The notes under the pieces: model-generated | Told to the model about the DNA's origin: nothing | The model's database searches: none | What the model saw: only the letters and a program-made list of their open reading frames with translations | Translations under genes and position numbers: made by a program | Assembly: GCA_000004695.1 (NCBI GenBank) | Contig: CM000155.2 | Location: 1,696,001-1,760,000 of the forward strand | Reading direction: 5' to 3' | DNA from: Dictyostelium discoideum | Lineage: Eukaryota | Length of the DNA stretch: 64,000 nucleotides | Shown here: positions 3,366-64,000 of the stretch, one piece after another | Layout: each line of letters starts with the position of its first letter | How positions within the stretch are numbered: the stretch's first letter is position 1

Positions 3366-3549
3366 TTATAAAAAACAAATATTATTATTATATTTTATAT
3401 TTTTGTACAATAAATAATTTTAAAATAAATAAATAAAACAAAATTAAATAAATTAAATAAAAAAACAAATTATGAAATTGTAATTGATTAAATGGAAAAT
3501 GAAAGATATCCCATCATATTTGGAAAATAAAAACAATTATTAAAGTACA

Positions 3550-5995
3550 TTGAAATTATTTTTTTTTTTTTTTTGATATAAATAAACTATTGTAGTATAC
3601 AATTAGTATGTTATTTTTATTTATTTATTTTAGGTTTTTTAGTTTTTGTGAATTTAAAATGGTATGTTATTTTAGATTAGGTAATTAATAATTAATTGGT
3701 GGTGTAATTGTTGGAATTGGTTCATTTGTGTTTATGCTCCATTCTTTTTTAAATTTTTTGATGGTTTCGGACCATTGGGTTTCTTTTTGAGTTTTTGTGA
3801 GGTTGTTTTTAATTGAGTATTGGTTAAAGTTTGATAATGTTCTTGAATATTCCAATCTTATTAGCTTGTGCCATTTTGATTTTAATATATCATAATCTAG
3901 TGTTATGTTGTTTATTTGGTTGTTCCAATTGTCAATTGATTGAGTTATATTGATGTCAAATAATGATTTGCATAACCATATCCATATTTGGTGAATAACT
4001 AATGAGATTATGTTCCAATATGCATGTGTTCTGACTAGATCAAGATTTGTGTTTATATAATTCCAGTTGAACCTGTATTTTTTATATTGTGCGTTTTCTG
4101 CAAAATGAAAATTAATATTGATAGTTGGATCTGGTTTAAATGCTTTGTTGTTTGTTTGTGGTTTATCAATGAGTGTGTATAATTTTGTTGTTTGGTTTTT
4201 TGTTAGTGACCAGTTTTTGTTTCCATTGCAATTTTTATATATAAAATATTTTAATTTGTCGTGGTTTATGAAGTTGATTGTGTGCTGACAATTGAAAAAC
4301 AAATGACCATAGGGATCATTATTCATTTCATTGTTGCAAATGGGGCAAACTTTGTTGTGTAGATGATTAATCGGAAGACATCTAGCATGGAATCTTTGCT
4401 TGTATAACGGCCTTTTGGATCTTTTAATTTTTGAATTTTGACAAATAGTTGGTCGTATGTGTATTTCCATAATAGTTGTATTGATTGTTGGTGCGAAGTA
4501 AGAAGTAGATCTGAATATTTCTTGCCAACATAGTCTTTTGATTTGCATTGGTGATTGTTGAGTATTGTCGAGTAGATTTCTTTGAGTGTTGGTGGTAGTG
4601 AAATATTATTTGTGGTTAATGTTTGAGAGGTTTGGTTTTTTGTTAATATTGGTTGTAGGGTTTGAACTTTATCTTTTAGATGTCCAATTTGAGTTGCATA
4701 GTTTTCCCATTCTTTTTTGATTTTTATCAGGTATGGAGAAGAGATTGATTTGTTGATGATTTGATCCATCCAACTTATCATGTATATTGAGTTATTTGCA
4801 GATTTATGCATTTGTAAAAATCTGTTGTATATCCATATCTTTTGAGCAACTTGTCGTAATTGTATATTCCACATACCCCAACCACCTTCTTTTAATGGTT
4901 TTAATGATATATCATAACACATCAAAGGTATTTTTGCACGTGAATGGATGGTTGATGTGTTGTTTTCAATGGAATTGGTATTGAGAGTTGGTGATTCAGA
5001 ATTTGAGGGAGAATTCATAAACCATGAGATTAATTTATTAATTTGAATTTCTTCATCTTTTGTAAATTCTTCAAGGTATGATAAATATGTTATTGGTGAT
5101 AGTGAGTAGGTGTTTATTATGGTTGTTTTTGTTTTTAATGTTGTGCCACTAGTTTTCCATAGTACTAATGATTTGATCAGTGTTTTCATTGTTTCTGGTA
5201 ATTTCCTATGTAAACCATTATGATTAAAGAAATAGCCAAGAACTCTTTCTGATTGATCTTTTTTGGTTATTGGTATTCTTTTTGATTGTGGAATGTTGTT
5301 TATTATGTGTTTATCAGTGATTTTGTGGGGGTTGATTTCTATTATTGCACTTTTGTTAAAATTTAATGATGATGATGTTGAAGAGCAGAAATTATCGAAA
5401 TGTTTGATTGATTGTTGTTGTTGTTGTTCGTAGTTGATGTTGTATGTTGTAGAGTCGTCTGCAAATTGGGTAAATTTGATTTTAATTTGTGGATTGGGTG
5501 AAATTGGTAATCCAATTATTGTATTGTCTGCATATATTGTTCTAGCTAATATTTCAATTACAATTACAAATAAAGTGGCTGAGATTGGGTCACCTTGTTT
5601 TACACCTCTTTTAATATCGAATTTTCTGGTCGTTTTACCATTAATTGAAATTTTTGCTTGTGAGTCAGATAATAGCTTGTGGATTAAATTTATTAATTTT
5701 ATTGGTATACCAATATTAATTAATGTTCTTTTAATACTATCGTGAGAGATAGAATCAAATGCTTTAAAGAAGTCAAATAGTGTGATGATACCAGGGAGGT
5801 TTTTAGATTTGAGGTAATTGATTAATTCATTGATGTTGATGATGTTGTCTATGATGAATCTGTGGGGTACGAAACCAGTTTGGTTGTTGTTGATAATGAA
5901 AGGAAGTATTCTCAGAAGACGTGCATTGAATACTTTTGAGAGGATCTTGTAATCAGTGTTTAGAAGTGTAATGGGACGACGATTTGATAAATTAT
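3550..5995 (-). mobile_element. 5'-truncated tRNA-gene-targeted non-LTR retrotransposon (TRE3-like), carrying the ORF2 reverse-transcriptase domain, a C-terminal Cys/His region and a 3' UTR with oligo(A)
   Basis: Minus-strand translation of about 5990-5190 gives LINE reverse-transcriptase motifs (RRPITLLNTDYKIL, FDSISH, GVKQGDPISATLF, FADD). ORFs 4323..5189 and 3685..4548 continue ORF2 and end in a DPYGHLFFNC Cys/His motif, which is shared with the element at 63.3-64 kb. The 3' UTR and oligo(A) lie on + at 3556-3684. No endonuclease domain or ORF1 is present, so the 5' end is truncated. The element sits downstream of the minus-strand tRNA-Lys. Confidence 0.7.
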
Positions 5996-6356
5996 TTAAT
6001 TAAATTTTTTTTTTTATTTTTTATTTTTTATTTTTTTTTATTTTATTTTTTTATTTTAAAAAAAAACAAAAGATTCTTAATTTATTAAAATTAATCTTGA
6101 TTAGATTTTTTTTTTTTTTGGTTTTCGTTTTGGTTTACTGTGTGTTTGTTGAGGTTTTTGTATTAAAAGGTTGAGGTTTTTGTATTAAAAGGTTGAGGTG
6201 TATTTGTGTGTGTGTATGTGTGTTGATGTTTTGTTGACGTTTTTGCAGTTTTATGTAAAAATTTTACAATTGATTATTTCTTTTTATTGTTTTTTTATTT
6301 TTATTATTTATTATTTATTTATTATTTATTTTTATATAATTTGAAGTATATTATAT

Positions 6357-6674
6357 TTAATCCAACATTCCTTCTGGTAAAGCATCATCTGGATTATCGG
6401 TACCTTTTTCAGTTTCTTCTAAATCAGCTGATAAACATTTATAAGCTGGAGTAAGGAAAAGTGCTGCAAATGTAACTGTAACCCATGTCATATTTAAAAT
6501 TTTTCTAGTTGTGAAACAAACCAAATTTGCTGAACTAACAATAATATTTCCTAATGTTTTGTTGGTGCTTAATCTACTAAAAAATCCAACTGAAGGTTTT
6601 GGTGTTTCGTGAGATGTAGTTGCTGGTAATGATTTATTTTTTTTGGTTGGTTTCTTTGTTAATCCTTTTGCCAT
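6357..6674 (-). CDS. Hypothetical 105-aa small membrane protein with a basic N-terminus, one predicted transmembrane helix and an acidic C-terminal tail
   Basis: A clean ATG..TAA ORF with noticeably higher GC and codon bias than the flanking sequence. It lies between the two TRE3-like copies. No family was recognised. Confidence 0.4.
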   Translation of the reverse strand: MAKGLTKKPTKKNKSLPATTSHETPKPSVGFFSRLSTNKTLGNIIVSSANLVCFTTRKILNMTWVTVTFAALFLTPAYKCLSADLEETEKGTDNPDDALPEGMLD

Positions 6675-6764
6675 TTTTACTAATTATATATATATATATG
6701 TTGAGGTGATTTAAATATTATTTGTGTGTTTGTTCCTCCAAATTTTAAAATTTTTTTTTTTTTT

Positions 6765-6956
6765 TTTTTTTTGATATAAATAAACTATTGTAGTATACAA
6801 TTAGTATGTTATTTTTATTTATTTATTTTAGGTTTTTTAGTTTTTGTGAATTTAAAATAGTATGTTATTTTAGATTAGGTAATTAATAATTAATTGGTGG
6901 TGTAATTGTTGGAATTGGTTCATTAGTGTTTATGCTCCATTCTTTTTTAAATTTTT

Positions 6957-6997
<41 letters not shown>

Positions 6998-7118
6998 TGG
7001 ATTAACAAGATTGATATATCTACCTATTTTTGATTGTTTCGGACCATTGGGTTTCTTTTTGAGTTTTTGTGAGGTTGTTTTTAATTGAGTATTGGTTAAA
7101 GTTTGATAGTGTTCTTGA

Positions 7119-7126
<8 letters not shown>
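6765..7126 (-). mobile_element. Second, short 3' fragment of the same TRE3-like element, interrupted at 6961-7030 by a (T)32 tract plus the 3' terminus of a different TRE-like element
   Basis: 6769-6960 and 6993-7126 are near-identical to 3556-3850. The inserted stretch aatattggattaacaagattgatatat preceded by poly(T) is the same sequence found at 63248-63300, the 3' end of the element at the tRNA-Ser locus. Confidence 0.65.
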
Positions 7127-7154
<28 letters not shown>

Positions 7155-7203
7155 ATTATTTTTTTTTTTTACCTAAAAGCGGTGTAAAGAGTGGGGAGAT
7201 CCG

Positions 7204-7244
<41 letters not shown>

Positions 7245-7274
7245 ATTATAAACAAAAGATTTTAAAAAAAAATT

Positions 7275-7347
7275 CGCCCAAAGGGGGGCTCGAACCCCCG
7301 ACCACAAGGTTAAAAGCCTTGCGCTCTACCGACTGAGCTATCTGGGC
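7275..7347 (-). tRNA. tRNA-Lys (anticodon UUU)
   Basis: The reverse complement folds as a cloverleaf: acceptor stem GCCCAGA/TTTGGGC with discriminator G, D-arm GCTCAGTCGGTAGAGC, anticodon stem CAAGG/CCTTG with loop CTTTTAA, T-arm GGGGGTTCGAGCCCCC. Length is 73 nt with no encoded CCA. Confidence 0.9.
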
Positions 7348-8174
7348 ATTTTATTAGAATTATTTTCTTAATATAAGATTTTATAGAGTATATATATAAT
7401 ATAACTAGTATCTCAAAGCAATTAAAAATATCAAATTGTTGGTATTGAGTTATTAAAAAGAATCGTGTTATTTATTTCTTCGTTTTAATTTATCATTCTG
7501 TTATACAATAAGTTAATTTGTAAAGTAAATTTATTTAGGGTGTAATCAAATTTAAAAAATATAAAAAAATAAATGAAAAAAAAAAAAAAAAAAAGTGAAC
7601 TTTTGGGTAAAACGTACGTTAAACATTACAAGGGTTACAACAAAATGACCCTATATAGATTTTTATTTTTTTTTATTTTTTTTGAATTTTTTTTTAAATT
7701 TTTTTTTTGAATTTTTTTTTTTTAATTTTATTTTTAAATTAAATTTGATACCAAAGATAAACAAATGAGCTGTTTAAAAAAAAAAAATAAAAATAAAAAT
7801 AAAAAAAAAAATAAAAATAAAAAATAACTAATAAATTTCAAACAGAAATAATAACAATAATAATAATCTAGATTTATTATAAAAATTAAGAAATCCTATT
7901 AATAATAATAAATAAAATTTTTTTTTTATTTTTTTTTTTTTGTTTTGGTTGTCCCCCTTTTTAATTCATTGTTAATTTTTTATTTATTTATTTTCTATTT
8001 ATTTTTTATTTTTTTATTTTTTTTTTTTGTTCACTTAAATATATTTATATATATATAATAATTATTGAATAAATAAAAAAAAAAAGGCGGGTTGGGTGAA
8101 CAAAAAAAAAAAAAAAAAAATTATTTATTTAATTATTTATTTAATTTTAATTTAAAAAAAAAAAAAAAAAAAAA

Positions 8175-12600: not shown

Positions 12601-14848
<2,248 letters not shown>

Positions 14849-18169: not shown

Positions 18170-20170
18170 ATTAAAAGTAAGAGATTTGGTTATTTAAAAT
18201 AATTACCAATATTGGAAAGCTATCATGTTTACGAATAATTTGACCATTATTATAGTATTGTGGCTCTCTATTTTGGTCTTTTATAGTATATATTTGATCA
18301 TGAACGGAACCTGGGAATCCCTCAGGATGTAGTAACAATAATCTGTATGATCTAGTGCATACCTCACAATGAAATTTGACCACATGACTTTGCTTTTACC
18401 AGAATAGTATTTTTTTTTTGGATTTGGTAATCAGTGGGAGTTTCAATAACAATAGAGGTAGATTCAGCAGCAATTGCACGATAAAGCACATTAGATATAG
18501 GATGTTTTAAAAAGCCAACTGATTCAACAAGTTTATCATATCTCTTTTCCATTTTTTCCTTGCATACAACTCAAAGTGAATGAATGGTTGACTATAGTGA
18601 TTTTGAAATGTTTTTGGACTAATACCAAAAGTAACACATATTTCATAAATTGGAAGATATTGTTTCCAATATAAGAGAGTCTAGCACAAAAAAAAATAAA
18701 AAATAAATAATGTTATTAATTAATTCATTTTATTTTTTACATTTTTTATTTTTTTTTTTTTTTGTTTATAATTTTTTTTTTTTTTTACATTTTGTTTAAT
18801 TTATGACTTGGTGTAATTTTACCAAATTATTTAATTTAATTAAATCTAATTTAATTTAATTTAATTTTTTTTTTTTTCATTTAATTTTAAAAAATGAGTA
18901 GTTTTTAATGGAACATATTATTGTCTAAAAATAGATATTTATTTTTAAAAATAATATTATTTTTTTTTTTCTATTCAAAATTAGAAATTTCCAGAAAATC
19001 TTAAAAAATACGTATTTCATTTTAAAAGTTAAGGTAATTTTGTTTTTTTATCTAAAAAAAAAAAACATATTATTGTAAAAAAGAATATGTATTTTTGGAA
19101 TAATAATATTATTTTAAAAATTTACACAAAAATCTTTTGTCTTTATGAACATTTTAAAATCAAAAATTAAATTAAATTAAATTAAATTAAATTAAATTAA
19201 ATTATATTAAATAGGTATAATTTTTTGACTTGTGGAAAAAAAAAATTATTATGTGAAGGGGTAAAAATTTTTACATAAAATTTAATTATGTTAATCGGGG
19301 TGTTAAATTTTTCTTTAAATTTTTTTTTTTAAGTTGTATTTTTTTGATTAAATAAATAAATTCATAATTATTTCCTTCTATTAATAAAAAAAAAAAAAAA
19401 AAAAAAATTCATAATTATCTCCTTCTATCAATAAAAAAAAAAAATAAATAAATTCATAATTATTTCCTTCTTTTAATAAAAAAAATGGTAAACTCTTGAC
19501 CAAGAAAAAAGCAAATGACTCAACCAAATTTAATGTTGTATTCTTTTGGATTAGAACCTGATATTATAGATAAATTATTAAATTTAATTAATGAAAATGA
19601 AGAACTTAAAGAAAAACGTATTAAAGATAAACATATAATTTGTGTGGGTGTTTAATATTAAAATAAAACTATAAAAAATAAATATAATAATAAAAATAAA
19701 AATAAAAATAAAAAATAAAAAATAAAAATAAATGTTGAAAATGAATAAATTAATAACATTATTTTTTTATTTTTTTTTTTGTGTTAGACTCTCTTGTGTT
19801 GGAAACAATATCTTCCAATTAATGAGATATGTGTTACTTTTGGTAATAGTCCGAAAACATTTCAAAATCACTATAGCCAAACCATTCATTCACTTTGAGT
19901 TGTATGCAAAGGAAATAATGGAAAAGAGATATGATAAACTTGTTGAATCAGTTGGCTTTTTAAAACATCCTATATCTAATGTGCTTTATCGTGCAATTGC
20001 TGCTGAATCTACCTCTATTGTTATTGAAACTCCCACTGATTACCAAATCCAAAAAAAATTACTATTCTGGTAAAAGCAAAAGTCATGTGGTTAAATTATT
20101 CGTAAACATGATAGCCTTCCAATCTTGAGTAATTATTTTAAATAACCAAATCACTTCCTCTTACCTTAAT
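18170..20170. repeat. Roughly 2-kb element-like structure with two long inverted repeats (about 18170-18680 and 19790-20170) around a central segment that carries its own internal direct repeats
   Basis: The reverse complement of 18380-18620 is nearly identical to 19790-20075; both encode MEKRYDKLVESVGFLKHPISNVLYRAIAAESTSIVIETPTDYQIQKK. The left arm holds an extra roughly 150 bp (encoding HCEVCTRSYRLLLLHPEGFPGSVHD...) bounded by a short ggt(c/t)aaat direct repeat and missing from the right arm. The central region has aatttaattt and aattaaatt arrays and a three-copy 45-bp tandem repeat at 19360-19480. The whole structure is flanked by the direct repeat (caa)n-atagtaattcaac at 17634-17668 and 20410-20440. 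Confidence 0.6.
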
Positions 20171-20835: not shown

Positions 20836-21007
20836 TAACCAAACTCACAAAGATTAAAATTTACCAATCATTTTATAACCAAGACACTATCTTGATTTTT
20901 TTTTTTTTTTTATTTTTTTTTTTTTTTAAAAGTTGCTGTTTATCCATTTAATTTTTAATTATTTAATACTTTTTTTTTTTTTTTTTTTTCTTTATTCTTA
21001 CTAAATT

Positions 21008-21046
<39 letters not shown>

Positions 21047-21074
21047 TTATTTTTGTATAAAAAGTGAAATAAAA

Positions 21075-24000
21075 ATGATTGAAAGTCAAAGGGAATTTAA
21101 TTGTATTGGTGGTGATAATCAGAATGGTGTCGCAGTTATTGGTGTAGGTTTTAAAATCCCATTAGATCTAGAAAATTGTTTATCAAGTCCAAGTGAATTA
21201 TATTCAGCATTATTTAATGAATTTGATAGTGTAACAAAGAATACAAGTTCACGTTGGTCTGATAACTATTTTAAAAATGGTGATATTGTTAGTCTTAGTG
21301 CAGGTTTATTACCACTCAGAGAAATTAAATCATTTGATCCAACTTTTTTCGGTATTAATCCATCCGATGCAGATTTAATTGATCCTCAACAAAGATTATT
21401 ATTAAAATGTAACTTTTTTTTATTTTATTTTTATTTTTATTTTTTTATTATTAACAAATTTAATTAAATAAATATATTAGGTGTTTGGAATGCATTAGAA
21501 GATGGTGGTATTGACCCAATCAGTATTCGTTCATCAGATACTAGTGTCTACATTGGTTGTTCAACTATTGACTATTTTCTTTTAAATAGAAATCCTGTTG
21601 ATCCTCATAATCATGGTATTCAAACCGCAAGTTATTCAATTCCAAATAGAATATCATATTGCTTTGATTTTAGAGGTGAAAGTTTGTTTGTTGACACTGC
21701 ATGTTCATCATCACTAAATGCAGTTCATCTTGGTTACAATTCAATTATAAATTTAAAATCAAAATTATCAATTGTTGGTGGTTCCAATTTAATTTTAGGT
21801 ATGAATTATCTTTTTATTTATTTTTTTTTTTTTTTTTTTTTTGTACTATTATTAATATTATTATTAATATTATTATTATTATTTTTATTTTACTGACATA
21901 TATATATTTCCTAGATCCACAAAATAGTATTTTTTTTTCTAAACAACAGGTGAATGGTCCAAGTGGTAAATGTAATAGTTTTTCAGAAGAAGCAGATGGC
22001 TTTGTTCGTAGTGAGACAGTTGGTGTAGTAGTATTAAAGAATTTAAAAGATGCAATTAAAGATGGTGATAGAATTTATTGTGTAATTCAAGGTTCAAATT
22101 CAAATGTTGACGGAAATTATGAAAAATTAAATTATATTTCACCTTCAAAATTATCACAAGCTGAAAATATTACCAAAGCATTAAAATCAACAAATGGTGC
22201 GGTGAATGCATCTGATATTGATTATTTCGAATGTCACGGTACTGGTACACCAACTGGAGATCCAATCGAATTAGAAGGTATATCAATTGCATTAAATAGA
22301 ACTCAACAATCTACAACATTATCAAATCCACTTTTAATAGGTTCAATTAAATCAAATATTGGTCATGGTGAGGCAAGTAGTGGTATAGCCAGTTTAATTA
22401 AATGTTGTGTAATGTTTAAATATCGTCAATTTTTACCAAATATTAATTTCAAAACACCAAATCCATTAATCAAATTTAAAGAATGGAATTTAAAAGTTGT
22501 AACTGAACCAGTTCCATTCAATAATAATAAACAAACTATTATGGCAATTAATAATTTTGGTGTTTCTGGTAAGATTTTAATATAACAATAATAAGAGCAA
22601 AACAAGATAATCAAACTACTAATATTTACTATTTTTTATTTTTATTAAATAGGATCAAATTGTTGTATTATTTTATCAGAATATAAAAGTAATAACAACA
22701 ATAATAATGATTTTAAAGCAACAACACATTTAAAATCAAAGAAATTTATTATACCATTTTCATCAAATTCCTCAACATCATTAGACAATTATAAATCATT
22801 ACTTTCAAATGAAACAAATAATTTTCAAGATTTTGTTATTAAACAAATTAATAATAAATCAACATCATTAATTCAAAGATCAGTAATCATTGCAAGTAAT
22901 TGGAGTGAATTTAATGAGTCATCAAATGAAATTCAATCAAATATTAAAAAATCAATTATATCTAATATCACAATTAAAAAAAAGAATGCAGTTACAGTAT
23001 TTGTATTTTGTGGTCAAGGTTCGCAATATAATAAAATGGCATTATCATTATATGAAAATGAACACATTTTCAAATCAACAATGGATAAATTAGATAAAGA
23101 ACTATCCAAACACTATGGGTATTCAATTTTAGAAAAATTAAGATCAATTACAGATGAAGATTTAGTAACAATTCATCAACCAATTTTAGCAATTCCAGTT
23201 AATGTAATGGTTCAAGTATCTCTATATGAATTGTATAAACATTGGGGTATTAAATCAGATATTATGGTTGGTCATTCGTTTGGAGAAATCGCTTGCTCTT
23301 ATTGCTCTGGTATGGTTGATTTTAAAACATTATGTTATTTAACATACCACAGATCAGTAGCTCAGAATAAAACAATTGGATCAGGTAAAATGTTATCAAT
23401 TAATATTGGTGCTAAAGAATACTTGGATTCTTATTCAACTAAATATCCATCGGTAGAAATCGCATGTTATAATAGTGAAACATCAATCGTTATTGCAGGC
23501 AATGAAGAATTATTAAATGAAATTTCAAAAGATTTAAAATCAAAAGATATTTTTACAGCAATGTTACCATCATTATCAGCATTTCATACAACACACCAAT
23601 CAGTTATTAAAGATGATATTTGCTCATTGAATTTTAAATCGACATTATCAAAAATAACAGTATTTTCCACAGTCACATCTAATCAGTTTGGTATTAATAA
23701 TAATAATAATAATAATAATAATCAACTTAATTCAAATTACCTTTTTCAAAATGTTATTCAACCAGTTAAATTTAGTGAGACAATATCAAATATATATAAA
23801 TACATTGAATCAAATGATATGGGTAATGAAATAACATTTATTGAAATTGCACCACACCCAACATTACAATATTATTTAAATCAAATGAAGTCACAACAAT
23901 CAGAATACTTTAATAATGGTGAAAAGATTTCAATCTATTCAGCATGTAATAAAAAGAAGAATGATTATAATGAATTTTTAAAAACAATTTCAACATTGTT

Positions 24001-26504
24001 TGTAAATGGTTATAATAATATTAATTTTAAATCTCAAATTATTAATAATAATAATAATGATAATAATAATAATTTTAATTTACCATTATATCAATGGGAT
24101 GATAATGAATATTATAAAATTCATCCAACATGGAAAAAAGCAAATAAAAATGGACCATCAATTAATCATCTTGGAAATCTAAATGATTCTTCAATTAAAT
24201 CATTTAAAACCTATATTAATACAAGAAAACCACAATTCCAATGGTTAAAAGGTCATTCTTTAAAAGGAAAAGTTGTATTCCCTGGTATGGGTTATATTTC
24301 AAATTTACTCTCAGTTTATAATATGAACCAAGATATTACAATTAATGAAATTCAATTCAAAAGTGCATTTATTTTAGTCGATGGTGTTAATAACTGTTTA
24401 GAGACATCGATTGTACCATTAACAAAGAATGAATTCAATATTAAATTTCATTTTAAAGATTTAAAAACAAATAAATGGGTATTATGTGCAAATGCTAATT
24501 ATAGTTTATTTAAACATAATGATAATAATGATAAACTTGATATTGAAAAATTAAAATCTAATTGTAATTATACAATAATTTCAAAAGATGAATTATATAA
24601 TAATATTAGAGCTAAAAGTGGATTGATTTATAAAGGTTTATTTCAAGGTGTTAAAGAAGCTTTCATTGGTAATAGATGTTCGTTAACAGTTTTATCATTA
24701 AATGAAATTGAAAACCAACAAGAGTTTAAACATTTATTAGAGAATAGAAACTTCAATTCATTATTTAATACAGCAATTTTAGATTCATGTTTACATGGTT
24801 CACTTCACTCAAAAGAACAATCTCAAATTTATTTTGACAAATGTGAAGGTTTTAAATATTATTCAAACAATATTAATTTAGCAACTTCGAAAAGAAATGA
24901 GTACAAAGAGATTAATGTTTATATTGAAACGAATCCCGTGATCAATTCAACAGTTATTGTAAGTTTAAAAATTATGTTACCAGATGGAACATTATTAATT
25001 GAAATTCAAAAAGTAGTTTGTAAATCATCAATACCAATTATTGATAGTACCTCAGTTATTCAACCATCACCAAAAGATTTACACACACCATATTATCAAC
25101 CAAAAAACTCATTAATTAAACCACCACAATCATTTAAACATTTACATTGTATGAAAGAATTTGCAAGTATAGAATCTGATAATAGAGAAATGGTGTATAT
25201 GTCAATTTATCATTTAATTTTTAAAGCCATCAATGCTAGATCTCCAACAAAAATCAATTTAGAATCCCTTGAAAATTTAACATTAGATCAATTTAAAGAA
25301 TTAATAAAAGACAGTGCAGCAAATATTCAACGTTCCAATCAATTTATATATGAATGTTTAAAACTATACCATACAAATCATTCAAATTATAAAAAAAATC
25401 AAATTAAAGATTTTATTAAAGAATGTGAAGATTTTAATGGATATAATCAAATAATTTTTAAAACAATTAAAATCTATGCAAAATCATTATTCCCATTACC
25501 AGATGACGATCCATTTACAGATACAATTCAATCATTGTTTGAAGATGATCAATTAGAAAACGTTTACATCCATTTAAAACACCTTTATCCAGTAAACAAT
25601 TTATTAAGTGAAATCGTTTTTCAATCAATTAAACCAATAATAAATCAAACATCAACATTTAGAATTTTAGAAATAGGAGCAGGTTATGGTACAATCTCAC
25701 AATTAATATTTGACAAACTCGAACAACTATTAGCAGATAATTTCACATCATCAAGAATTGATATAGAATATACATTTACTGATATTTCAAATACTTTCTT
25801 ACCAAGAGCAAAAGAGAGATATTCAAAATATAAAAGATTCAACATAATTTACAAACTCTTAGATTTAGAACTTCCTTTAACAGAGGGAATTCAAGATTTT
25901 AGACCATTATATTATGATATAGTTGTTATGTCAAATGTTTTACATGTTGTAAAAGATATTAATTTCAGTACAAATGAAATCTATAAAGTTTTAAAACAAA
26001 ATGGTCAATTAATATTTGTAGAACCAACATATAAAAATTTATATCTTGATACTATATTTGGCATATTTCCACAAGTAAGTAGTTATTAATATTTATTATT
26101 ATCTATTTATTAATCTAATATATTTTTTTTTGTAAGTGGTGGTCATTTAATGATGATATTAGAACTGATAGATGTTGTCTTGAACCTTCAAAATGGTTTG
26201 AATTTTTAGAAACAATTAATTTTAAAGATACAATTATTTTGGGTCAAGATAACAAAGAAATCTTGAAAAATGTTGAAAATTCAATAATATTAGTACAAAC
26301 TAGAAAACCATCACAACTTGAATTATCGATAAATAATTCACCATCAACCAACCAATTCAAATCTTTTGAAAACATAATATTATATACTGATGATAACCAA
26401 CAACCAAATGATTGTAGTGAAATTATCGATTTATTAAAATCATTAGAACTACCAATTAAAATAATTAACAATATAGACCAATTTAATCAAATTATTAAAA
26501 CACA

Positions 26505-26571
<67 letters not shown>

Positions 26572-29454
26572 AATAACAATTTAATAATATTTTTAAAATC
26601 AGTTAATCAATTAAATACTAATAATTATAAAGATATTACATTTGAATATGTTCAAATCAATCAAATTTTAGTAAAATTAGAACTTGAAGAAAATTATAAA
26701 TTATTATTAATAACTAATAATTCTCAATCAAGTAATTATTTATCAAATTCATTAATTGGTACATCAAGATATTTATTTGCAGATATAGTATCATCAAAAT
26801 TAGATATTATTACAATTGATTTCGATACCGTTTCAATTAAGAACCATCAAAATGTTATATCAGTTATTAACCATTTATTAGATTCAAAAGATAATAGTGA
26901 AAGAGAATATTATATTATTAATAATGAAATTAATATTGAAAGATATAAAAATGAATCAAATATTAAACATCAATTAAAATCAAAAACCTTTCAAGAAAAT
27001 AAAGATGAATTAATGGTACAATTAGACTCAAATTTAGAATATAGATTAAAATCAAAATCAAAACAAGAATTAAAATCAACTCATGTTGAAATTCAAGTTA
27101 AAGCAATTGGAATTAATTATAAAGATTATGCAACTTACAGTGGTTTAATCGATTCAATCATAGAAATTGATAAAGATAAAGAAAAGGATGAAAATTATGA
27201 CCAAAATTATCCAAGTATTGGTAATGATTTTAGTGGTGTAATTACAAGAATTGGTAGTGATGTTAGAAAGTTTAAAGTTGGTGATGAAGTATGTGGTTTA
27301 GCACCTAAAACATCCGCTTCACATATTATCACTGAAGAAGGTTATCTTTGTAAGAAACCATCAAACATTAGTCACTCTGAAGCTGCATCATCAGTAACAG
27401 TTTACACAACATCATTTCAAAGTATTTATAGCATTGGTGATTTAAAGAAAAATGAAACCATATTAATTCATTCAGGTAGCGGTGGTATTGGTTTATCTGC
27501 ATTGGAAATATTAAAATGGAAAAATCATCAAGGTTACATATTTGCAACTGTAGGCTCTGAAGATAAAGTTAAATATTTAACAGATACCTATGGTTCATTC
27601 ATAACTGGTATATATTCATCCAGAGATAAGGACTATCAAGATCAAATTAAAGAGAAATTAAAATCATTAGGTTGCGATATCGATCATCAAGGAGTAGATC
27701 TAATATTGAATACACTATCAGTAGAGTACATGGATTCAAATTTTAAATGTTTAAATCAAAAAGGTAGATGTATTGATCTTTCAATCACTCATTTAACTCC
27801 ATTTGATTATATGGATTATAATAAATTCAAATTCAATGTTTCCTATGGTAATATTGAACTTGTTGTATTACCATCCAAAATTATTAAAGATCATTTAAAA
27901 AAGATGCTTAAAGCCTTTTCATTAGGTAGTTTAAGATTTATACCTATTGTTGAATTTTCAAATTTGAATATAAGAAATGCAGTCGAATACATTAATCAAC
28001 GTAAACATATTGGTAAAATTGTAGTAAAGAATGATGTTGATTTTATAAATAAATTATTTATTGAACAACAACAACAACAAAACTCTGTTGAAAATAATGA
28101 AATTTTAATGAAAGATAAATATGATATTTCAAATTTAGAACTTGGTAAAAATATATTATTAACTGGTCAAACAGGTATTATTTTAACTATATTAAAATGG
28201 TTATATAAACATTCAAATAATTCAATTGAAAATATTATTATAATTTCCAAATCAAAATTAAAATGGGAATTAGAATTATTTATAAATGAATCAACTAATA
28301 ATAGAATTAAAATTCATTATAAACAAGCTGACGTTGGTAATAATAATGAATTAAATCAGTGCTTTGAAGAATTAAGATTACGACATTCAATTGAAGATAT
28401 TAATTCAATTTTCCATTTTGCATTTATTAATGATATTGGTCAATTTGAAGATGTTAATATGAATCGTATGGATATCGCTCATCATGCTAAAGCAATTGGT
28501 TCACTTAATTTACATAACCAATCTATTGAACGTAAATGGAATATTAAACAATTTGTATTGGCATCTTCGGCGTTATCAGTATTTGGTGGAGACAACCAAT
28601 GTTGTTATATCAGTGCTTGTTCAGTTTTAGACTCCTTATCAAAGTATAGAAAATCAATTGGTCTTCCATCTTTATCAATTAACTTTGGTGGTGTAACATC
28701 AACTGGTTTCGTATCTCGTAGTGGTGCTGTCGAAGCTAACCTTGAAAGTTCTATTATCAATTTAATTACACCACAATCATTAATTTCTTCATTGGATTTA
28801 TTTATTCAAAACTCTCAAACCTTTTCAAACTATACTCATTTCAATTTCATATATGATAATATAGAATCATATTCACTCAACAGAATGTTATTTAAATTTG
28901 ACTATTTAATCAACCAACATTCCTCATTAGTTTCAAATAAAAGATTAGGTGGAATAAATGAAAATAATAATATTGGTGATTTATTAGTATCAAAAATTGG
29001 TGAACTTTTATCAATTGAGCCATCAAAATTGAATTTAGATTTTAGATTAGTTGGTAAGTTTTGTTTTTTTTTATTTATAATTTTTATTTTATTATTACTA
29101 ATCTTTTCTAAAAATTAATAAATAAAATTAGATTATGGTTTAGATTCATTGGTTATCGTTCAACTTAAAAATTTTATTGATAAACAATTCCAACCTCATT
29201 TAATTTCAATTTTACAATTACAAAATAATAAAATCTCAACAACAATAGAAATTATAATCAAAGGATATAATAATAATCAAAATAAAAAAATTAAAAATGA
29301 ACAATCAAATGACATTCCAAGTGTAGTTCAAAAAGAAACTATCAAAGATAACAATGAAAATAAAGACGATATAAAAATCGATATGGATGATAAAAAAGAA
29401 AATTTAAAAGGTAAAAAAGAGAATATTGATGACAAAAAAGAAAATAACAATTAG
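21075..29454 (+). CDS. Type I iterative, highly reducing polyketide synthase with domain order KS-AT-DH-CMeT-ER-KR-ACP (copy 1, apparently intact)
   Basis: Six exons are proposed: 21075..21408, 21481..21798, 21915..22568, 22652..26074, 26137..29053, 29132..29454. Domain motifs seen: KS ([10 protein letters not shown]|[25 protein letters not shown]|[30 protein letters not shown]); AT (GHSFGE); CMeT ([12 protein letters not shown]); ER ([13 protein letters not shown]); KR ([10 protein letters not shown]); ACP ([12 protein letters not shown]). Intron donors are GTAACT, GTATGA, GTAAGA and GTAAGT, all with AG acceptors. Confidence 0.85.
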
Positions 29455-30128
29455 CCATAATTTCAAAATCGTTAGTTTTATAAAGTTTTTGTATTCAAAA
29501 CAATAATTAAAAAATAAAGTGATAATAATTTTACAAAAAATATTGTTACAAAAAAACAAAGATTAACCAAAAAAATTGATTTAATTAAATGGTTTTATTA
29601 TTTATTTTTTTTTTTTTAAAATTTAATTAATTTATAAAATTATACTTCATTTTTTAAAAAGATAAATTAGTGGGGGGACAAATTAATGGTCATTTTCTTT
29701 TTTTAAAATTCCTTATTTTCTCTTATTATTACTATATAGAGTTTAAATATTTTTTTATTTTTTTTTTTTTTTTTTTTTATTAAACCAAAATAGGGGCAAA
29801 AAAAACAAAAATACAAAAAAATTATTATTTTTTTTTTTTTTTATTTGCCATTTTCACCACAAAATAACATTACTACATAAAAATAAATAAATAAATAATT
29901 TTTTTTTTTTTTTATTTCAAAAACCGTTCTTGTGTTAAATCGAAATGGGCTTGTAGAATTTAAAAATGATAGTAAGTTTATTACAATATTGGGTGTTTGA
30001 AATTTTTTTTTTTTTTTCTATTTATTTTATTTTTAATTTAATGTTTTAATACCTTTTTTTTTATTTTTTTTTTAATTAGTTTATTTATTTATTTATTATT
30101 TTAGTATATCATATTAAGTGGAATACAA

Positions 30129-33100
30129 ATGATTAAAAGTCAAAGAGAATTTAATTGCATTTGCGGTGATAATCAAAATGGTGTCGCAGTTATTGGTGTA
30201 GGTTTTAAAATACCATCAGATCAAGAGAATTGTTTATCAAGTCCAAGTGAATTATATTCCGCATTATTGAATGAATTTGATGGTGTAAAAAATGATACAA
30301 GTACGCGTTGGTCTGATAACTATTTTAAAAATGGTGATATTGTTAGTAATAGTGCAGGTTTATTACCACTCAAAGAAATTAAATCATTTGATCCAACTTT
30401 TTTCGGTATTAATCCATCAGATACTGATTTAATTGATCCTCAACAAAGATTATTATTAAAATGTAACTTTTTTTTATTTTATTTTTTATTTTTATTTTTT
30501 AATGTAAATTATTATTAACAATTTTAATTTATTTAAAAAATTATATATATATTATTATTATTAGGTGTTTGGAATGCATTAGAAGATGGTGGTATTGACC
30601 CAATCAGTATTCGTTCATCAGATACTAGTGTCTACATTGGTTGTTCGAATATCGATTATTATCTTTTAAATAGAAATCTTATTGATCCTCATAATCATGG
30701 TATTCAAACTGCAGGTTATTCAATTCCAAATAGAATATCATATTGCTTTGATTTTAGAGGTGAAAGTTTGTTTGTTGACACTGCATGTTCATCATCACTA
30801 AATGCAGTTCATCTTGGTTACAATTCAATTTTAAATTCAAAATCAAAATTATCAATTGTTGGTGGCTCAAATTTAATTTTAGGTATGAATTATCTTTTTA
30901 TTTTTATTCGGTTATTATAATTTATTATAATTTATATTATTATTATTATTATTATTTTATTTTATTTTTTATAAATACTAACATATATATAATTTCTAGA
31001 TTCACAAAATAGTATTTTTTTTTTCTAAACAACAGGTGAATGGTCCAAGTGGTAAATGTAATAGTTTTTCAGAAGAAGCAGATGGCTTTGTTCGTAGTGA
31101 AACAGTTGGTGCGATAGTATTAAAGAATTTAAAAGATGCAATTAAAGATGGCGATAGAATTTATTGTGTAATTCAAGGTTCAAATTCAAATGTTGACGGA
31201 AATTATGAAAAATTAAATTATATTTCACCTTCAAAATTATCACAAGCTGAAAATATTACCAAAGCATTAAAATCAACAAATGGTACAGTCAATGCATCTG
31301 ATATTGATTATTTCGAATGTCACGGTACTGGTACACCAATCGGAGATCCAATTGAATTAGAAGGTATATCAATTGCATTAAATAGAACTGAACAATCTAC
31401 AACATTATCAAATCCACTTTTAATAGGTTCAATTAAATCAAATATTGGTCATTGTGAAGCAAGTAGTGGTATGGCCAGTTTAATTAAATGTTGTGTAATG
31501 TTTAAATATCGTCAATTTTTACCAAATATTAATTTCAAAACACCAAATCCATTAATCAAATTTAAAGAATGGAATTTAAAAGTTGTAACTGAACCAGTTC
31601 CATTCAATAATAATAAACAAACTATTATGGCAATTAATAATTTTGGTGTTTCTGGTAAGATTTTATTATAAAAATAATAAGAACAAAAATAAATCATCTA
31701 ATATTTACTATTGTTTATTTTTATTAAATAGGATCAAATTGTTGAATTATTTTATCAGAATATAAAAATAATAATAATAATAATAATAACAATAACAATA
31801 ATGATTTTAAAGCAACAACAAATTTAAAATCAAAAAAATTTATTATACCATTTTCACCAAATTCATCAACATCATTAGACAATTATAAATCATTACTTTC
31901 AAATTTATCAAATGAAACAAATAATTTTCAAAATTTTGTTATTAAACAAATTAATAATAAATCAACATCATTAAATCAAAGATCAGTAATCATTGCAAGT
32001 AATTGGAGTGAATTTAATGAGTCATCAAATGAAATTCAATCAAATATTAAAAAATCAATTATATCTAATATCACAATTAAAAAAAAGAATGCAGTTACAG
32101 TATTTGTATTTTGTGGTCAAGGTTCACAATATAATAAAATGGTATTATCGTTATACGAAAATGAACAAGTTTTCAAATCAACAATGGATGAATTAGATAA
32201 AGAATTATCCAAACACTATGGGTATTCAATTTTAGAAAAATTAAGATCAATTACAGATAATGATTTAGTAACAATTCATCAACCAATTTTAGCAATTCCA
32301 GTTAATGTAATGGTTCAAGTATCTCTATATGAATTGTATAAACATTGGGGTATTAAATCAGATATTATGGTTGGTCATTCGTTTGGAGAAATCGCTTGCT
32401 CCTATTGCTCTGGTATGGTTGATTTTAAAACATTATGTTATTTAACATACCACAGATCAGTAGCTCAGAATAAAACAATTGGATCAGGTAAAATGTTATC
32501 AATTAATATTGGTGCTAAAGAATACTTGGATTCTGATTCAACTAAATATCCATCGGTAGAAATCGCATGTTATAATAGTGAAACATCAATCGTTATTGCA
32601 GGTAATGAAGAATTATTAAATGAAATTTCAAAAGATTTAAAATCAAAAGATATTTTTACATCAATGTTACCATCATTATCAGCATTTCATACAACACACC
32701 AATCAGTTATTAAAGATGATATTTGCTCATTGAATTTTAAATCAACATTATCAAAAATAGCAGTATTTTCCACAGTCACATCAAATCAGTTTGGTATTAA
32801 TAATAATAATAATAATCAATTTAATTCAAATTACCTTTTTCAAAATGTTATTCAACCAGTTAAATTTAGTGAAACAATATCAAATATATATAAATACATT
32901 GAATCAAACGATATGGGTAATGAAATTATATTTATTGAAATTGCACCACACCAAACTTTACAATATTATTTAAATCAAATGAAATCACAACAATCAGAAT
33001 ACTTTAATAATGGTGAAAAGATTTCAATCTATTCAGTATGTAATAAAAAGAAAAATGATTATAATGAATTTTTAAAAACAATTTCAACATTGTTTGTAAA

Positions 33101-33134
33101 TGGATATAATAATATTAATTTTAAATCTCAAATT

Positions 33135-33170
<36 letters not shown>

Positions 33171-62890: not shown

Positions 62891-62972
62891 GACATCGTAG
62901 CGAAGTGGTCTAACGCGTTTGACTTGAAATCAAATCTCCTAGGAGGCGCAGGTTCGAACCCTGCCGATGTCG
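62891..62972 (+). tRNA. tRNA-Ser (anticodon UGA)
   Basis: Acceptor GACATCG/CGATGTC with discriminator G; anticodon stem TTTGA/TCAAA with loop CTTGAAA; long variable arm TCTCCTAGGAGGCG; T-arm GCAGGTTCGAACCCTGC. Length is 82 nt. Confidence 0.9.
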
Positions 62973-63002: not shown

Positions 63003-63013
63003 GGTTCGAATCT
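63003..63013 (+). promoter_or_regulatory. External B box (exB) of the tRNA-Ser gene
   Basis: GGTTCGAATCT matches the pol III B-box consensus GGTTCGAANCC. It lies about 31 bp downstream of the tRNA 3' end, as is typical for Dictyostelium tRNA genes. Confidence 0.6.
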
Positions 63014-63247
63014 TGTTAAATTTCTTAGTTATGCAAAAATAAATTAAATACATGTTAAGAAATAAAGAGATATTTTTAACAAATAAAGAATTAATTATTG
63101 TTATGAAAATTGTAAAAATTAAAACTGATTTTTCCAAAAAACGAAAAATTGTTTTTTATATTTTAATACAATAATACTATATTTTAAAATAACAACTTTA
63201 CATTTAAAAATTAATAAATTAACAATTGGTTATTTCCTTTATAAATT

Positions 63248-64000
63248 TTTTTTTTTTTTTTTTTTTTTTTAATATTGGATTAACAAGATTGATATATGTC
63301 CATCTGTGTTAATACGAGTTTTTATTTAATATTTATTTATAGGCTTATCATTTAAGCTGAAGGGTTATTTTAATCATATGAATTGATCAAAAGATATAAT
63401 ATTTGGGAGAGATGATTCTGGAATACAATAGTAATTAGCTGTTGTTTTTCTTAGCTTGATCGTTGAGGTGAGAAGGATCTTAGGATCTTTGAAATTATTA
63501 TGGTCTTTTGCTGATAAGTTTTTCAGATCTTTTGCTTTTTTGATGTATTCTAGAGTGGCCAATTTGTGCCATTTCTTTAGAAGGGAGCTGTATGATAGTG
63601 ATTCATTTGTTAAAGGATCTTCACTGTATATTTGATTGCAAATCCAAATCCAAATGTTGTGGAGGATAAGGGCCATTAGGTTTCTATATGCGAATGATCT
63701 GGTTAGATCATAGTCTATTGCTTTATAGTTCCATTCAAAGTATTCTTTATGGAATCTGTGATTGGCGTAATCTGCATTCACTTCTTGATCTTTTTTGGCT
63801 GTTGGTGATAATTTTGGAGTTATTCTATTAATGAAATTGTTATTTTGCCTAATTCTTGTATGGTGCCAGTTTTTACCTTTGCCTGTGGTAATAAAGATGA
63901 AATTTTTGAGTTTATTTATTTTTATGAATTGTTTTGTTTTCTTGCATGAGAAGAACAGGTGACCGTATGGGTCTTTGCTCATATCTTCTTTGCAGAGTGG
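63248..64000 (-). mobile_element. 3' end of a second tRNA-targeted non-LTR retroelement (TRE3-like, distinct subfamily), extending beyond the window
   Basis: The minus-strand ORF 63374..63982 encodes the ORF2 C-terminus with the same Cys/His tail as element A (DPYGHLFFSCKK; ..HNIWIWICNQ compare ..HQIWIWLCKS). The 3' UTR ends in an oligo(A) tail (+ strand T27 at 63248-63274), about 275 bp downstream of tRNA-Ser. Confidence 0.65.

Follow-up and report, generated by a model that had tools for sequence, protein, structure and literature searches.

The sequences described here compare most closely with the TRE3 retrotransposons (TRE3-A to TRE3-D), with which they share poly(A) tails, 5' truncation, an ORF2 carrying RT and a CCHC motif and, in full-length relatives, an AP-type endonuclease. 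[quoted passage not shown] Successive TRE insertion at one tRNA gene has already been published (note to Table S2, PMC5006619), and the full-length relative found here, at ~5.3 kb, can be set against consensus lengths of 5229 (TRE3-A) and 5279 bp (TRE3-B) (PMC5006619). The TRE5 elements (TRE5-A/B/C) belong to the same superfamily, have the same ORF2 domain order and likewise take their bearings from pol III genes, but they sit ~50 bp upstream of tRNA genes and in the opposite orientation. Human L1 resembles the elements at this locus in its target-primed reverse transcription, which yields poly(A)-tailed inserts of variable 5' truncation between target-site duplications, and the L1 literature knows very short inserts, as well as inserts of RNA other than that of the element, as outcomes of this process. 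However, L1 does not target pol III genes, whereas the insertions here are confined to a small interval behind a tRNA gene. Skipper-2 of D. discoideum and Ty3 of yeast likewise use tRNA genes as safe sites in compact genomes, and Skipper-2 inserts downstream of them (PMC5006619), but both are LTR/integrase elements, and LTR, integrase and RNase H are absent from the pieces described below.

The locus of interest lies within a 64,000-nucleotide stretch of Dictyostelium discoideum DNA, which was analysed at its full length and is referred to here as the window. We propose, with a probability of about 0.88, that in the region downstream of its tRNA-Lys(UUU) gene TRE3-family retrotransposons have inserted repeatedly by target-primed reverse transcription. 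It offers a compact example of tRNA-targeting retrotransposons piling up at one safe site in a gene-dense genome, and has little significance beyond annotation. Stacked TRE insertions at one tRNA gene are already known behaviour of the family, and because sequential targeting of a single tRNA gene has been published, the locus is an ordinary one, whose tandem and nested stacking does not differ in kind from that of other TRE3 elements. What does differ from described TRE3 insertions is that one copy lies 1.3 kb from the tRNA, past a host gene, and that another is inverted relative to a tRNA-Ser gene.

A truncated type-1 element and its relatives

The longest piece (copy 1 of type 1) has its body at 3575–5989 on the minus strand, as supported by RVT_1, by matches to RT proteins and by alignment to an intact copy at locus L001, and its poly(A) tail of 16 nt can be read from the sequence at 3559–3574 on the same strand. 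The element is truncated at its 5' end inside the RT domain, which is matched over 5313–5987 (Pfam RVT_1, E=1.4e-29), and a CX2CX10HX4C (CCHC) motif lies at 4288–4347. These features, together with a distance of 1286 bp from the 3' end of tRNA-Lys to the 5' end of copy 1 (~780 bp before later insertions), bear out the initial annotation of a 5'-truncated element with RT, a Cys/His tail and a 3' UTR some 1.3 kb from the tRNA. At this distance copy 1 falls far outside the published TRE3 ranges, and, since a conserved host gene separates it from the tRNA, it is not part of the landing-site stack. A B-box scan found no B box near it, and its flanks hold a candidate ATAATT duplication (5990–5995 and 3553–3558) that is too short and too AT-rich for significance. 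The RT of copy 1 is 86–97% identical to D. discoideum RT proteins, which together with RVT_1 points to both organism and family, and DNA alignment gave 2.1% mismatches to the intact L001 copy, a full-length element with Exo_endo_phos and RVT_1 to which copy 1 is 97.98% identical. A 1-nt deletion near 4400 produces a frameshift, and a 3-nt in-frame insertion is carried at 5426–5428. Copy 1 is accordingly dead, inactivated by the combination of truncation and frameshift.

The assignment of type 1 is supported by the positions of its relatives at tRNA genes and by RT identity. At L001, two tandem type-1 copies follow a tRNA-Lys gene at a distance of 48 bp on its downstream side, in the orientation of that gene, and the first of them has both endonuclease and RT; the ORF2 order endonuclease–RT–CCHC is present there, copy 1 having lost its endonuclease by truncation. 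At L008, a family member found with P0032 (98.5–99% identical to the L001 element) and bearing an (A)nTCTTTT duplication follows a tRNA-Gln gene with an external B box, 67 bp on the downstream side and again in the same orientation. The full-length type-1 relatives share the 3' UTR and poly(A) ending. The type-1 RT is 45–53% identical to other elements of its group, but only 35% identical to P0021, whose element (L004) stands where TRE5 elements canonically do, on the upstream side of a tRNA-Thr gene and in reverse orientation to it. One protein of the 90%-identity cluster bears the label 'similar to HC domain of Tdd-3 and DRE', which does not fix the subfamily letter. Copies 1 and 2 (the latter described below) show the architecture of non-LTR elements, with tails of A16 and A22, no terminal repeats and different truncation points, and all four poly(A) pieces lie with tRNA-Lys on the minus strand, the same relative orientation as at L001 and L008. 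The expected distance downstream of a tRNA is kept by copy 2 and by the relatives, copy 1 being the exception. Taken together, the tRNA positions and RT identities support a TRE3-type non-LTR retrotransposon as the main element, subfamily letter aside, in agreement with the TRE3-like identity first suggested for it. Assignment of type 1 to TRE5 is disfavoured by the low RT identity to the TRE5-positioned element, and assignment to an LTR family by the lack of the LTR, integrase and RNase H noted above.

A second TRE3-type element near tRNA-Ser

Protein and DNA matches identified another TRE3-type element (type 2) at 63246–64000 on the minus strand, where it runs off the window. Its poly(A) stretch of 25 nt (63246–63270) is followed by the 3' UTR and then by the C-terminal CCHC part of ORF2, a region 98.7% identical to P0012 (type 2); the RT of P0012 and the type-1 RT share 53% identity. 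Type 2 has the ORF2 with RT and Cys/His part and the poly(A) characteristic of TRE3, and no DNA similarity was found between the type-1 and type-2 3' UTRs. The window copy is 98.8% identical at the DNA level to positions 14058–14810 of L002, where type 2 is broken by an interruption and its 5' side lacks a tRNA. In the window, the 3' end of type 2 faces tRNA-Ser(UGA), which ARAGORN placed at 62891–62972 on the plus strand and which has an external B box at 63003–63013 (B-box scan), at a distance of 273 bp. A different element had been claimed downstream of tRNA-Ser at 63.25 kb; the element is indeed there, but inverted relative to the tRNA. Given this opposite orientation and a 5' end that lies beyond the window, its tie to tRNA-Ser is unproven.

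The landing site downstream of tRNA-Lys(UUU)

The pol III-transcribed landmark of the locus, tRNA-Lys(UUU), was found on the minus strand at 7274–7348 by ARAGORN and at 7275–7347 by Rfam (tRNA, 72.6 bits), the latter being the bounds used here. A B-box pattern scan located its internal B box, GGTTCGAGCCC, at 7286–7296 and found no external B box at the locus. The immediate 3' flank (7244–7274, minus strand; read from the sequence and from the B-box scan) runs, on the tRNA strand, from AATTTTTTTT, a pol III terminator T run, through AAAATCTTTTGTTT to ATAATC, the left copy of a duplication described below, in which it terminates. The TRE landing site lies 42 bp past the internal B box, a distance that the initial annotation had singled out for measurement.

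BLAST within the window aligned 6754–6960 to 3556–3762 (98.6% identity) and 7027–7123 to 3755–3851 (97.9% identity), revealing a second type-1 copy (copy 2) in two parts on the minus strand, a 3' part of 188 nt at 6773–6960, matching the 3' end of copy 1, and a 5' part of 97 nt at 7027–7123. Its poly(A) tail of 22 nt, placed at 6751–6772 from T-run coordinates, may in part be A-rich target. Copy 2 comprises the last 277 nt of the abundant type-1 element plus A22, and its span of 373 bp counts a nested insert. An earlier description of a copy of the last ~360 bp lying 150 bp from the tRNA was right about the copy and its distance: copy 2 at its 5' end stands 152 bp from the end of tRNA-Lys today (about 31–40 bp before the insertion of a 38-mer, see below). 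The description requires correction only in the length. Any duplication belonging to copy 2 itself could only be an A run. Copies 1 and 2 are 98% identical, have equal orientation and lie 3.2 kb apart, and it is conceivable that copy 2 is a DNA-level duplicate of the 3' end of copy 1, produced by segmental duplication or unequal recombination. We consider such an origin very improbable, since the homology begins exactly at the poly(A) and stops at the truncation point with no common flank, one tail has 16 nt and the other 22 nt, and the 5' end of copy 2 adjoins an A run, as insertion into an A-rich target predicts. Copy 1 is, moreover, equally 98% identical to copies at unrelated loci, so that the identity between copies 1 and 2 is no sign of local origin.

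Independent insertion of copy 2 was apparently followed by insertion of another element into it. On the plus strand, copy 2 is interrupted by T33 (6960–6992) and then by 34 nt (6993–7026); read on the minus strand, in the orientation of tRNA-Lys, this is a 34-nt 3'-terminal fragment with a poly(A) tail (6961–6992, from T-run coordinates), 157–248 bp from the end of tRNA-Lys. The 27 nt at 6993–7019 are identical to 63271–63297 in the type-2 element, and with the T run the match extends to 52/52 (E=2e-22, BLAST), while the 7 nt at the 5' end of the fragment (CTACCTA, 7020–7026) are unmatched to the 63.27-kb element. An 8-bp duplication of copy-2 sequence, TTTTTGAT, borders the insert at 6953–6960 and 7027–7034. 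Copy 2 had been described as split by (T)32 and a 37-bp terminus of the element at 63.25 kb; the split stands, with a run of T33 and an identity of only 27 nt. In the window and eight loci the 27-mer has only three occurrences, every one directly before a poly(A) run, and at L002 (14760–14786) it ends the long type-2 copy. These comparisons identify the nested fragment as the 3' terminus of another TRE3-type subfamily.

A 38-nt GC-rich fragment

Between copy 2 and the tRNA lies a 38-nt fragment, TTTCTCGGATCTCCCCACTCTTTACACCGCTTTTAGGT, of 47% G+C (7171–7208, minus strand), with an A12 tail at 7159–7170 (this and the following run from T-run coordinates, minus strand). On its left is an A35 run (7209–7243) that forms, with ATAATC, one copy of the duplicated target; the right copy (7122–7158, minus strand) consists of ATAATC (7154–7158 plus the adjoining A) followed by A32, and adjoins the truncated 5' end of copy 2. 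BLAST matched 7122–7159 to 7212–7249 at 38/38, and the plus-strand order is T32-GATTAT-T12-insert-T35-GATTAT. The initial annotation's view of a GC-rich retro-fragment between two (T)n-GATTAT flanks is upheld, its length being 38 nt instead of 40 bp. Target-site duplications, which it had proposed to look for, were found both here, as ATAATC(A)n, and around the nested insert (8 bp). Taken literally, the duplication around the 38-mer would be ATAATC plus 32–35 A, which is unusually long; its size is uncertain because A-run lengths vary between assemblies, the A35 run being 31 nt in a second assembly.

The 38-mer is unique in the window and has no Rfam match, but its last 16 nt, with A15, recur at L001 (9796–9826) behind another tRNA-Lys(UUU) gene, where they are bordered by a clean 12-bp target-site duplication, GTATTACCAAAA. 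The recurrence of a shorter copy with tail and duplication supports the conclusion that the 38-mer behaves as a tiny 3' retro-fragment. The tRNA-Lys region is full of homopolymer runs that yield many spurious matches, and one could ask if the resemblances of the short fragments arose by chance from the low complexity and AT-richness of the DNA. This explanation is effectively refuted by the placement of the 27-mer, an exact match of mixed sequence found only at element 3' termini before poly(A), and by the recurrence of the 16-mer, which has 7 G/C bases and, for 46 kb of DNA of the composition found here, an estimated chance expectation of ~1e-6, in addition to its tail and 12-bp duplication.

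As to its source, the 38-mer had no match in the TRE3-type, TRE5-type, LTR or DNA elements of the eight loci, and it is a third template type, outside the two element types named above. It is possible, although we lean against it, that the 38- and 16-nt pieces derive from no TRE subfamily and instead represent the 3' terminus of some other RNA that the TRE3 machinery copied in trans. Such an RNA could be a cellular transcript, an undescribed SINE-like non-autonomous element or an orphan 3' transduction that goes back to one read-through source element. Consistent with this, the G+C content of the 38-mer contrasts with the AT-richness of every TRE 3' end examined, both pieces lie behind tRNA-Lys(UUU) genes, and they share a 3' terminus and differ in their 5' truncation points, as expected of one defined RNA template. 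On the other hand, only two GC-rich poly(A) pieces are available, and the 38-mer may end a described family, the 3' ends of TRE5-A, TRE5-C and perhaps other TRE3 subfamilies lying outside the comparison. Mutagenesis of the TRE5-A C-module gives nucleotides at positions C38, A35, C26 and T15 from the 3' end (PMC3159450). At these four published positions, to which the indirect comparison is confined, the 38-mer reads T, C, C and A, a match at one of four, and no choice of offset or strand satisfies all four. More speculatively, and in our estimation improbably, the GC-rich micro-inserts could all stem from one defined non-TRE RNA, copied in trans by TRE3 and inserted downstream of tRNAs; an undescribed SINE-like element could have supplied it, or a single source element whose read-through gave an orphan 3' transduction. 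We know of no SINE described in D. discoideum. If the template of the 38-mer is indeed non-TRE, it would constitute evidence of trans-mobilisation by TRE3.

Repeated insertion at the tRNA gene, the reading we prefer, would have proceeded as follows; the literature on TRE and L1 supplies the mechanism of target-primed reverse transcription, the guidance by pol III factors (TFIIIC/B box) and the sequence of events. TRE3 elements, which are L1-like non-LTR retrotransposons with AP-type endonuclease, RT and CCHC, would be steered to the 3' side of the tRNA gene, where at least three independent, heavily 5'-truncated poly(A) copies, all in the orientation of the tRNA, would have inserted at a site ~31–160 bp from the tRNA end as it stood at each insertion. 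One would be copy 2, from the abundant subfamily; the 34-nt end of the second subfamily would have entered copy 2 and generated the 8-bp target-site duplication; and the 38-nt end of the third template would have landed between the tRNA and copy 2, duplicating ATAATC and an A run. A fourth insertion, the 2.4-kb copy 1 of the first subfamily, lies past the host gene and outside the usual landing interval. Reuse of one pol III-linked site by two element subfamilies, as originally put forward, is directly visible and is retained in a modified form that leaves copy 1 out of the site and adds the third template type.

Other assemblies and sister species

An independent D. discoideum assembly (L007, GCA_054883475.1) is identical over 3400–7400 apart from two T runs of different length, the A35 run mentioned above and the run at 6960–6992, which measures 33 nt here against 27 nt in the second assembly. 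The segment between copies 1 and 2 (6005–6753, minus strand) is host DNA rather than transposable element, as indicated by orthologues, and comprises a 105-aa ORF (6357–6674), its leader and a C/A-rich 3' flank. The 105-aa gene has orthologues at 75–80% identity in D. citrinum, D. firmibasis and D. dimigraforme, and D. citrinum DNA aligns to 6005–6677 at 80%. At the orthologous locus of D. cf. discoideum, only 404 bp separate the tRNA from a peptidase gene, and no TRE is present.

The same comparison bears on where the insertions took place. Homology to D. cf. discoideum halts exactly at the 3' end of the tRNA (window position 7269) and restarts at 3447, the 404-bp spacer being unrelated, which raises the possibility that the whole 3.8-kb block of micro-inserts, copy 2, 105-aa gene and copy 1 came from another locus, for example another tRNA-Lys(UUU) gene, and reached this one through gene conversion or ectopic recombination, the tRNA serving as a homology arm. 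Such a transfer is compatible with TRE3 targeting and alters only the location of the events. The position of the 105-aa gene in a different gene neighbourhood in D. citrinum, and its separation in D. firmibasis, where the peptidase gene is on another contig, would agree with it. We nevertheless consider it rather unlikely, as no donor locus was seen, AT-rich intergenic DNA diverges fast, and loss or replacement of the segment may have occurred in the sister species.

The locus also illustrates two difficulties of annotation. TRE-type insertions can be only 16–38 nt plus a tail, a size that repeat-masking would miss. Among the matches of our homology search there was no stand-alone D. discoideum protein for the 105-aa gene, and in the annotation of GCA_054883475.1 this host gene and the dead retrotransposon ORF are merged into one 824-aa model; because a host gene can be fused into a retrotransposon model in this way, such loci should be annotated with care.

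TRE3-type elements at the tRNA-Lys gene

The stacked TRE3-type pieces described at tRNA-Lys in the initial annotation are present, with lengths that we amend below. The locus is of a known kind and behaves as described for that kind, and the finding is correct but ordinary. ARAGORN found two tRNA genes in the window, tRNA-Lys(UUU) at 7274-7348 on the minus strand (7275-7347, minus, in Rfam) and tRNA-Ser(UGA) at 62891-62972 on the plus strand. A B-box scan located internal B boxes at 7286-7296 (minus) in tRNA-Lys and 62951-62961 (plus) in tRNA-Ser, as well as an external B box at 63003-63013 behind tRNA-Ser, and found no external B box after tRNA-Lys. Every poly(A) piece at the tRNA-Lys locus lies on the minus strand, which is also the strand of the tRNA. 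A repeat search of the whole window was dominated by low-complexity families, was of no use here, and was replaced by BLAST, run both with the low-complexity filter and without it.

The longer of the two TRE pieces, copy 1, has its body at 3575-5989 and an A16 tail at 3559-3574, both on the minus strand. In an alignment to an intact relative, homology begins at 5989, within the reverse transcriptase (RT) domain, and mismatches amount to 2.1%. Compared with this relative, copy 1 has gained 3 nt in frame at 5426-5428 and lost 1 nt near 4400; the loss explains why the RT and C-terminal parts are in different frames. The RT part matched Pfam RVT_1 (E=1.4e-29), and the C-terminal part carries a CX2CX10HX4C motif at 4288-4347 (minus). 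In a homology search, the best matches of the RT-bearing frame were Dictyostelium discoideum proteins (86–97% identity), and all of the matching proteins are named "hypothetical" in the databases.

Relatives of this element, which we call type 1, occur at other tRNA genes. On another D. discoideum contig (L001), a different tRNA-Lys(UUU) gene is followed 48 bp downstream by a full-length copy of about 5.3 kb in the same orientation, which shares 98% identity with copy 1 and has Exo_endo_phos and RVT_1 domains in its gene model; a second type-1 copy lies in tandem behind it. At L008, a tRNA-Gln gene has an external B box behind it and, 67 bp downstream, a type-1 element that is oriented like the tRNA and bracketed by an (A)nTCTTTT duplication. 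TRE3 as published has an APE-RT-zinc-finger ORF2 and an oligo(A) tail, with per-subfamily ranges of 14–305 bp and consensus lengths of 5229 bp for TRE3-A and 5279 bp for TRE3-B (PMC5006619, Table 1). In a comparison with this published description, the type-1 element agrees on every point. The element encoding P0021, in contrast, is about 5.9 kb long and has the arrangement of TRE5, unlike that of type 1, as it lies upstream of a tRNA-Thr gene and runs opposite to it; the RT of P0021 is only 35% identical to the type-1 RT.

The full-length type-1 copies diverge at their 5' ends upstream of AAAAAACCGAAAAAACAAAG (L001 4436-4480 and 9826-9860; L008 9838-9860), and one of them begins with GGTTCAAATCC, a B-box-like motif. 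Because of the way the duplications are nested, this motif was carried in by the element and is not native to the locus; it could represent an external B box acquired by 5' transduction.

The second piece, copy 2, comprises 277 nt from the 3' end of the element, rather than 360 bp or so, and a tail of 22 nt; its 5' end lies 152 bp from the 3' end of tRNA-Lys. It is split in two; in BLAST alignments, 6754-6960 matched 3556-3762 at 98.6% identity, and 7027-7123 matched 3755-3851 at 97.9%. Between the halves are T33 (6960-6992) and a 34-nt fragment (6993-7026), of which the first 27 nt are identical to the terminus of a second element at 63271-63297 and the other 7 nt are unmatched. The sharing of this terminus with the element near tRNA-Ser was thus seen correctly, and the 37 bp reported for it reduces to 27. 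The 8-bp copy-2 sequence TTTTTGAT flanks the nested insert on both sides (6953-6960 and 7027-7034) and is a target-site duplication.

The source of the nested fragment, type 2, has its poly(A) end at 63246-63270 (minus). Its C-terminal CCHC region is 98.7% identical to P0012, a protein whose RT is 53% identical to that of type 1, and a long copy at L002 ends in the identical 27 nt, indicating that type 2 is a distinct subfamily of the same group. The nested fragment in copy 2 is the extreme 3' end of this subfamily. A different element does lie downstream of tRNA-Ser, as initially annotated, but it is inverted relative to that gene, with its tail facing the tRNA at a distance of 273 bp, and its 5' end is beyond the window edge. 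"Downstream of tRNA-Ser" is therefore a statement of position only, and the long copy may belong to a tRNA gene further to the right.

TRE clusters at L002 (14815-15300 and 15545-15905) and L003 (12740-13500) contain other distinct poly(A) 3' ends, three or more in number, that are related to types 2 or 3, and the diversity of 3' ends in such clusters looks greater than four TRE3 subfamilies. At two loci among these clusters, a short inverted-repeat DNA element lies inside TRE copies.

An independent D. discoideum assembly (GCA_054883475.1) was collinear with the window at 99.9–100% identity. Over 3400-7400 the two are the same except for two T runs, at 6960-6992 and 7209-7243, for which the other assembly has 6 and 4 nt fewer, demonstrating that the tRNA-Lys structure is no assembly artefact. 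The difference reflects either homopolymer instability or sequencing error, making the lengths of tails and duplications here soft numbers. Comparison with this one assembly, essentially identical to the window, revealed no presence/absence polymorphism.

Micro-inserts and probable order of insertion

Read along the tRNA strand, the tRNA is followed by a 30-nt flank ending in ATAATC, then A35, a GC-rich 38-mer, A12, ATAATC, A32 and copy 2. The 38-mer (7171-7208, minus) is the insert that had been measured as 40 bp, and BLAST found no second copy of it in the window. At L001, between the two tandem type-1 copies, TACACCGCTTTTAGGT, which corresponds to the final 16 nt of the 38-mer, is followed by A15 and has GTATTACCAAAA on either side. 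Each micro-insert is situated behind a tRNA-Lys(UUU) gene, the flanks of the two sites being unrelated. The two share a 3' terminus, differ in 5' truncation point, and both carry poly(A) tails and target-site duplications. Together these features are the signature of target-primed reverse transcription from a defined RNA template, and the L001 counterpart bears out the earlier reading of the insert as a tiny 3' retro-fragment.

The 38-mer has a G+C content of 47%, whereas every TRE copy seen has an AT-rich 3' end. It was absent from the TRE3-type, TRE5-type, LTR and DNA elements across L001-L008, matched nothing in Rfam, lacked a stable fold (z = 0.54), and gave no match in exact scans of metagenome, genome and viral contigs of public collections; a full-text literature search with micro-insert oligomers returned irrelevant matches only. 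Of four nucleotide positions published for the TRE5-A C-module (PMC3159450), it fits one in an indirect comparison. The fragment may still derive from the end of an already described family. The template of the 38-nt and 16-nt inserts is the sole loose end of some interest at this locus.

At 31 bp from the tRNA end, the native flank past tRNA-Lys reads ATAATC and then a run of A residues. This run after ATAATC is the probable entry point of copy 2, whose own duplication would then comprise A residues at most. The type-2 fragment would next have entered copy 2, 97 nt in, and the 38-mer would have entered at ATAATC(A)n; the type-2 insertion point would have been 157 or 248 bp from the tRNA, the shorter distance applying if the 38-mer was not yet in place. 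At L001, a stretch of about 20 bp likewise contains three nested duplications (CTATATTTTTAG, GTATTACCAAAA, TTTTAGTATTACCAAAA). From the literature, we suggest that pol III transcription factors may guide insertion here, and that target-primed reverse transcription probably made these insertions.

A host gene between the copies and the history of the block

Between copy 1 and copy 2, at 6357-6674 (minus), lies a real gene, an ORF of 105 aa whose orthologues in D. citrinum, D. firmibasis and D. dimigraforme share 75–80% identity with it. For D. citrinum the similarity extends to the DNA, which aligns over 6005-6677 and takes in the C/A-rich 3' flank of the gene. Conservation of that flank in D. 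citrinum rules out the idea that the C/A-rich stretch at 6120-6250 is another transposable element fragment. The homology search returned no stand-alone D. discoideum protein for this ORF; in the annotation of GCA_054883475.1, it and the dead TRE3 ORF form a single gene model of 824 aa (L007 11730-14719). Because a real host gene intervenes, copy 1 stands outside any stack pushed outward from the tRNA, and the B-box scan found no B box near it. A retro-copied mRNA fused to TRE3 by template switching is unsupported, the junction being A-rich genomic sequence that is also found in D. citrinum, with no pure tail. The gene has no intron, and intron loss is therefore no usable test of retro-copying.

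In D. cf. discoideum, the orthologous locus consists of the peptidase gene, an unrelated 404-bp spacer (L006 11485-11889) containing the external-B-box-like GAGTTCGATTC, and the tRNA-Lys gene, with neither a TRE nor the 105-aa gene. The spacer occupies the place of a 3.8-kb block at 3447-7269 in the window, between the peptidase gene and tRNA-Lys. In D. citrinum the 105-aa gene has different neighbours, and a search there for an empty site of copy 1 gave a junction alignment no better than shuffles (70 of 300 reached its score). The absence of TRE and gene from D. cf. discoideum, together with the different neighbours in D. citrinum, indicates that the block is specific to the D. discoideum lineage. 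It could have grown in place or been brought in from another tRNA-Lys locus, possibly by ectopic recombination at tRNA or TRE sequences; homology to D. cf. discoideum stops at 3447 on one side and right at the 3' end of the tRNA on the other, and these precise breaks, like the differing gene neighbours in D. citrinum, would fit an origin elsewhere.

Other features of the window

Well away from the tRNA-Lys locus, a segment of about 8.4 kb is duplicated in tandem (20970-29338 and 30011-38395) at 94–96% identity. An inverted repeat at 18373-18803 and 19653-20097 has arms of about 430 bp with 91% identity, about 0.85 kb apart, and a 150-bp core (18412-18561 and 19909-20058) that is 99% complementary.
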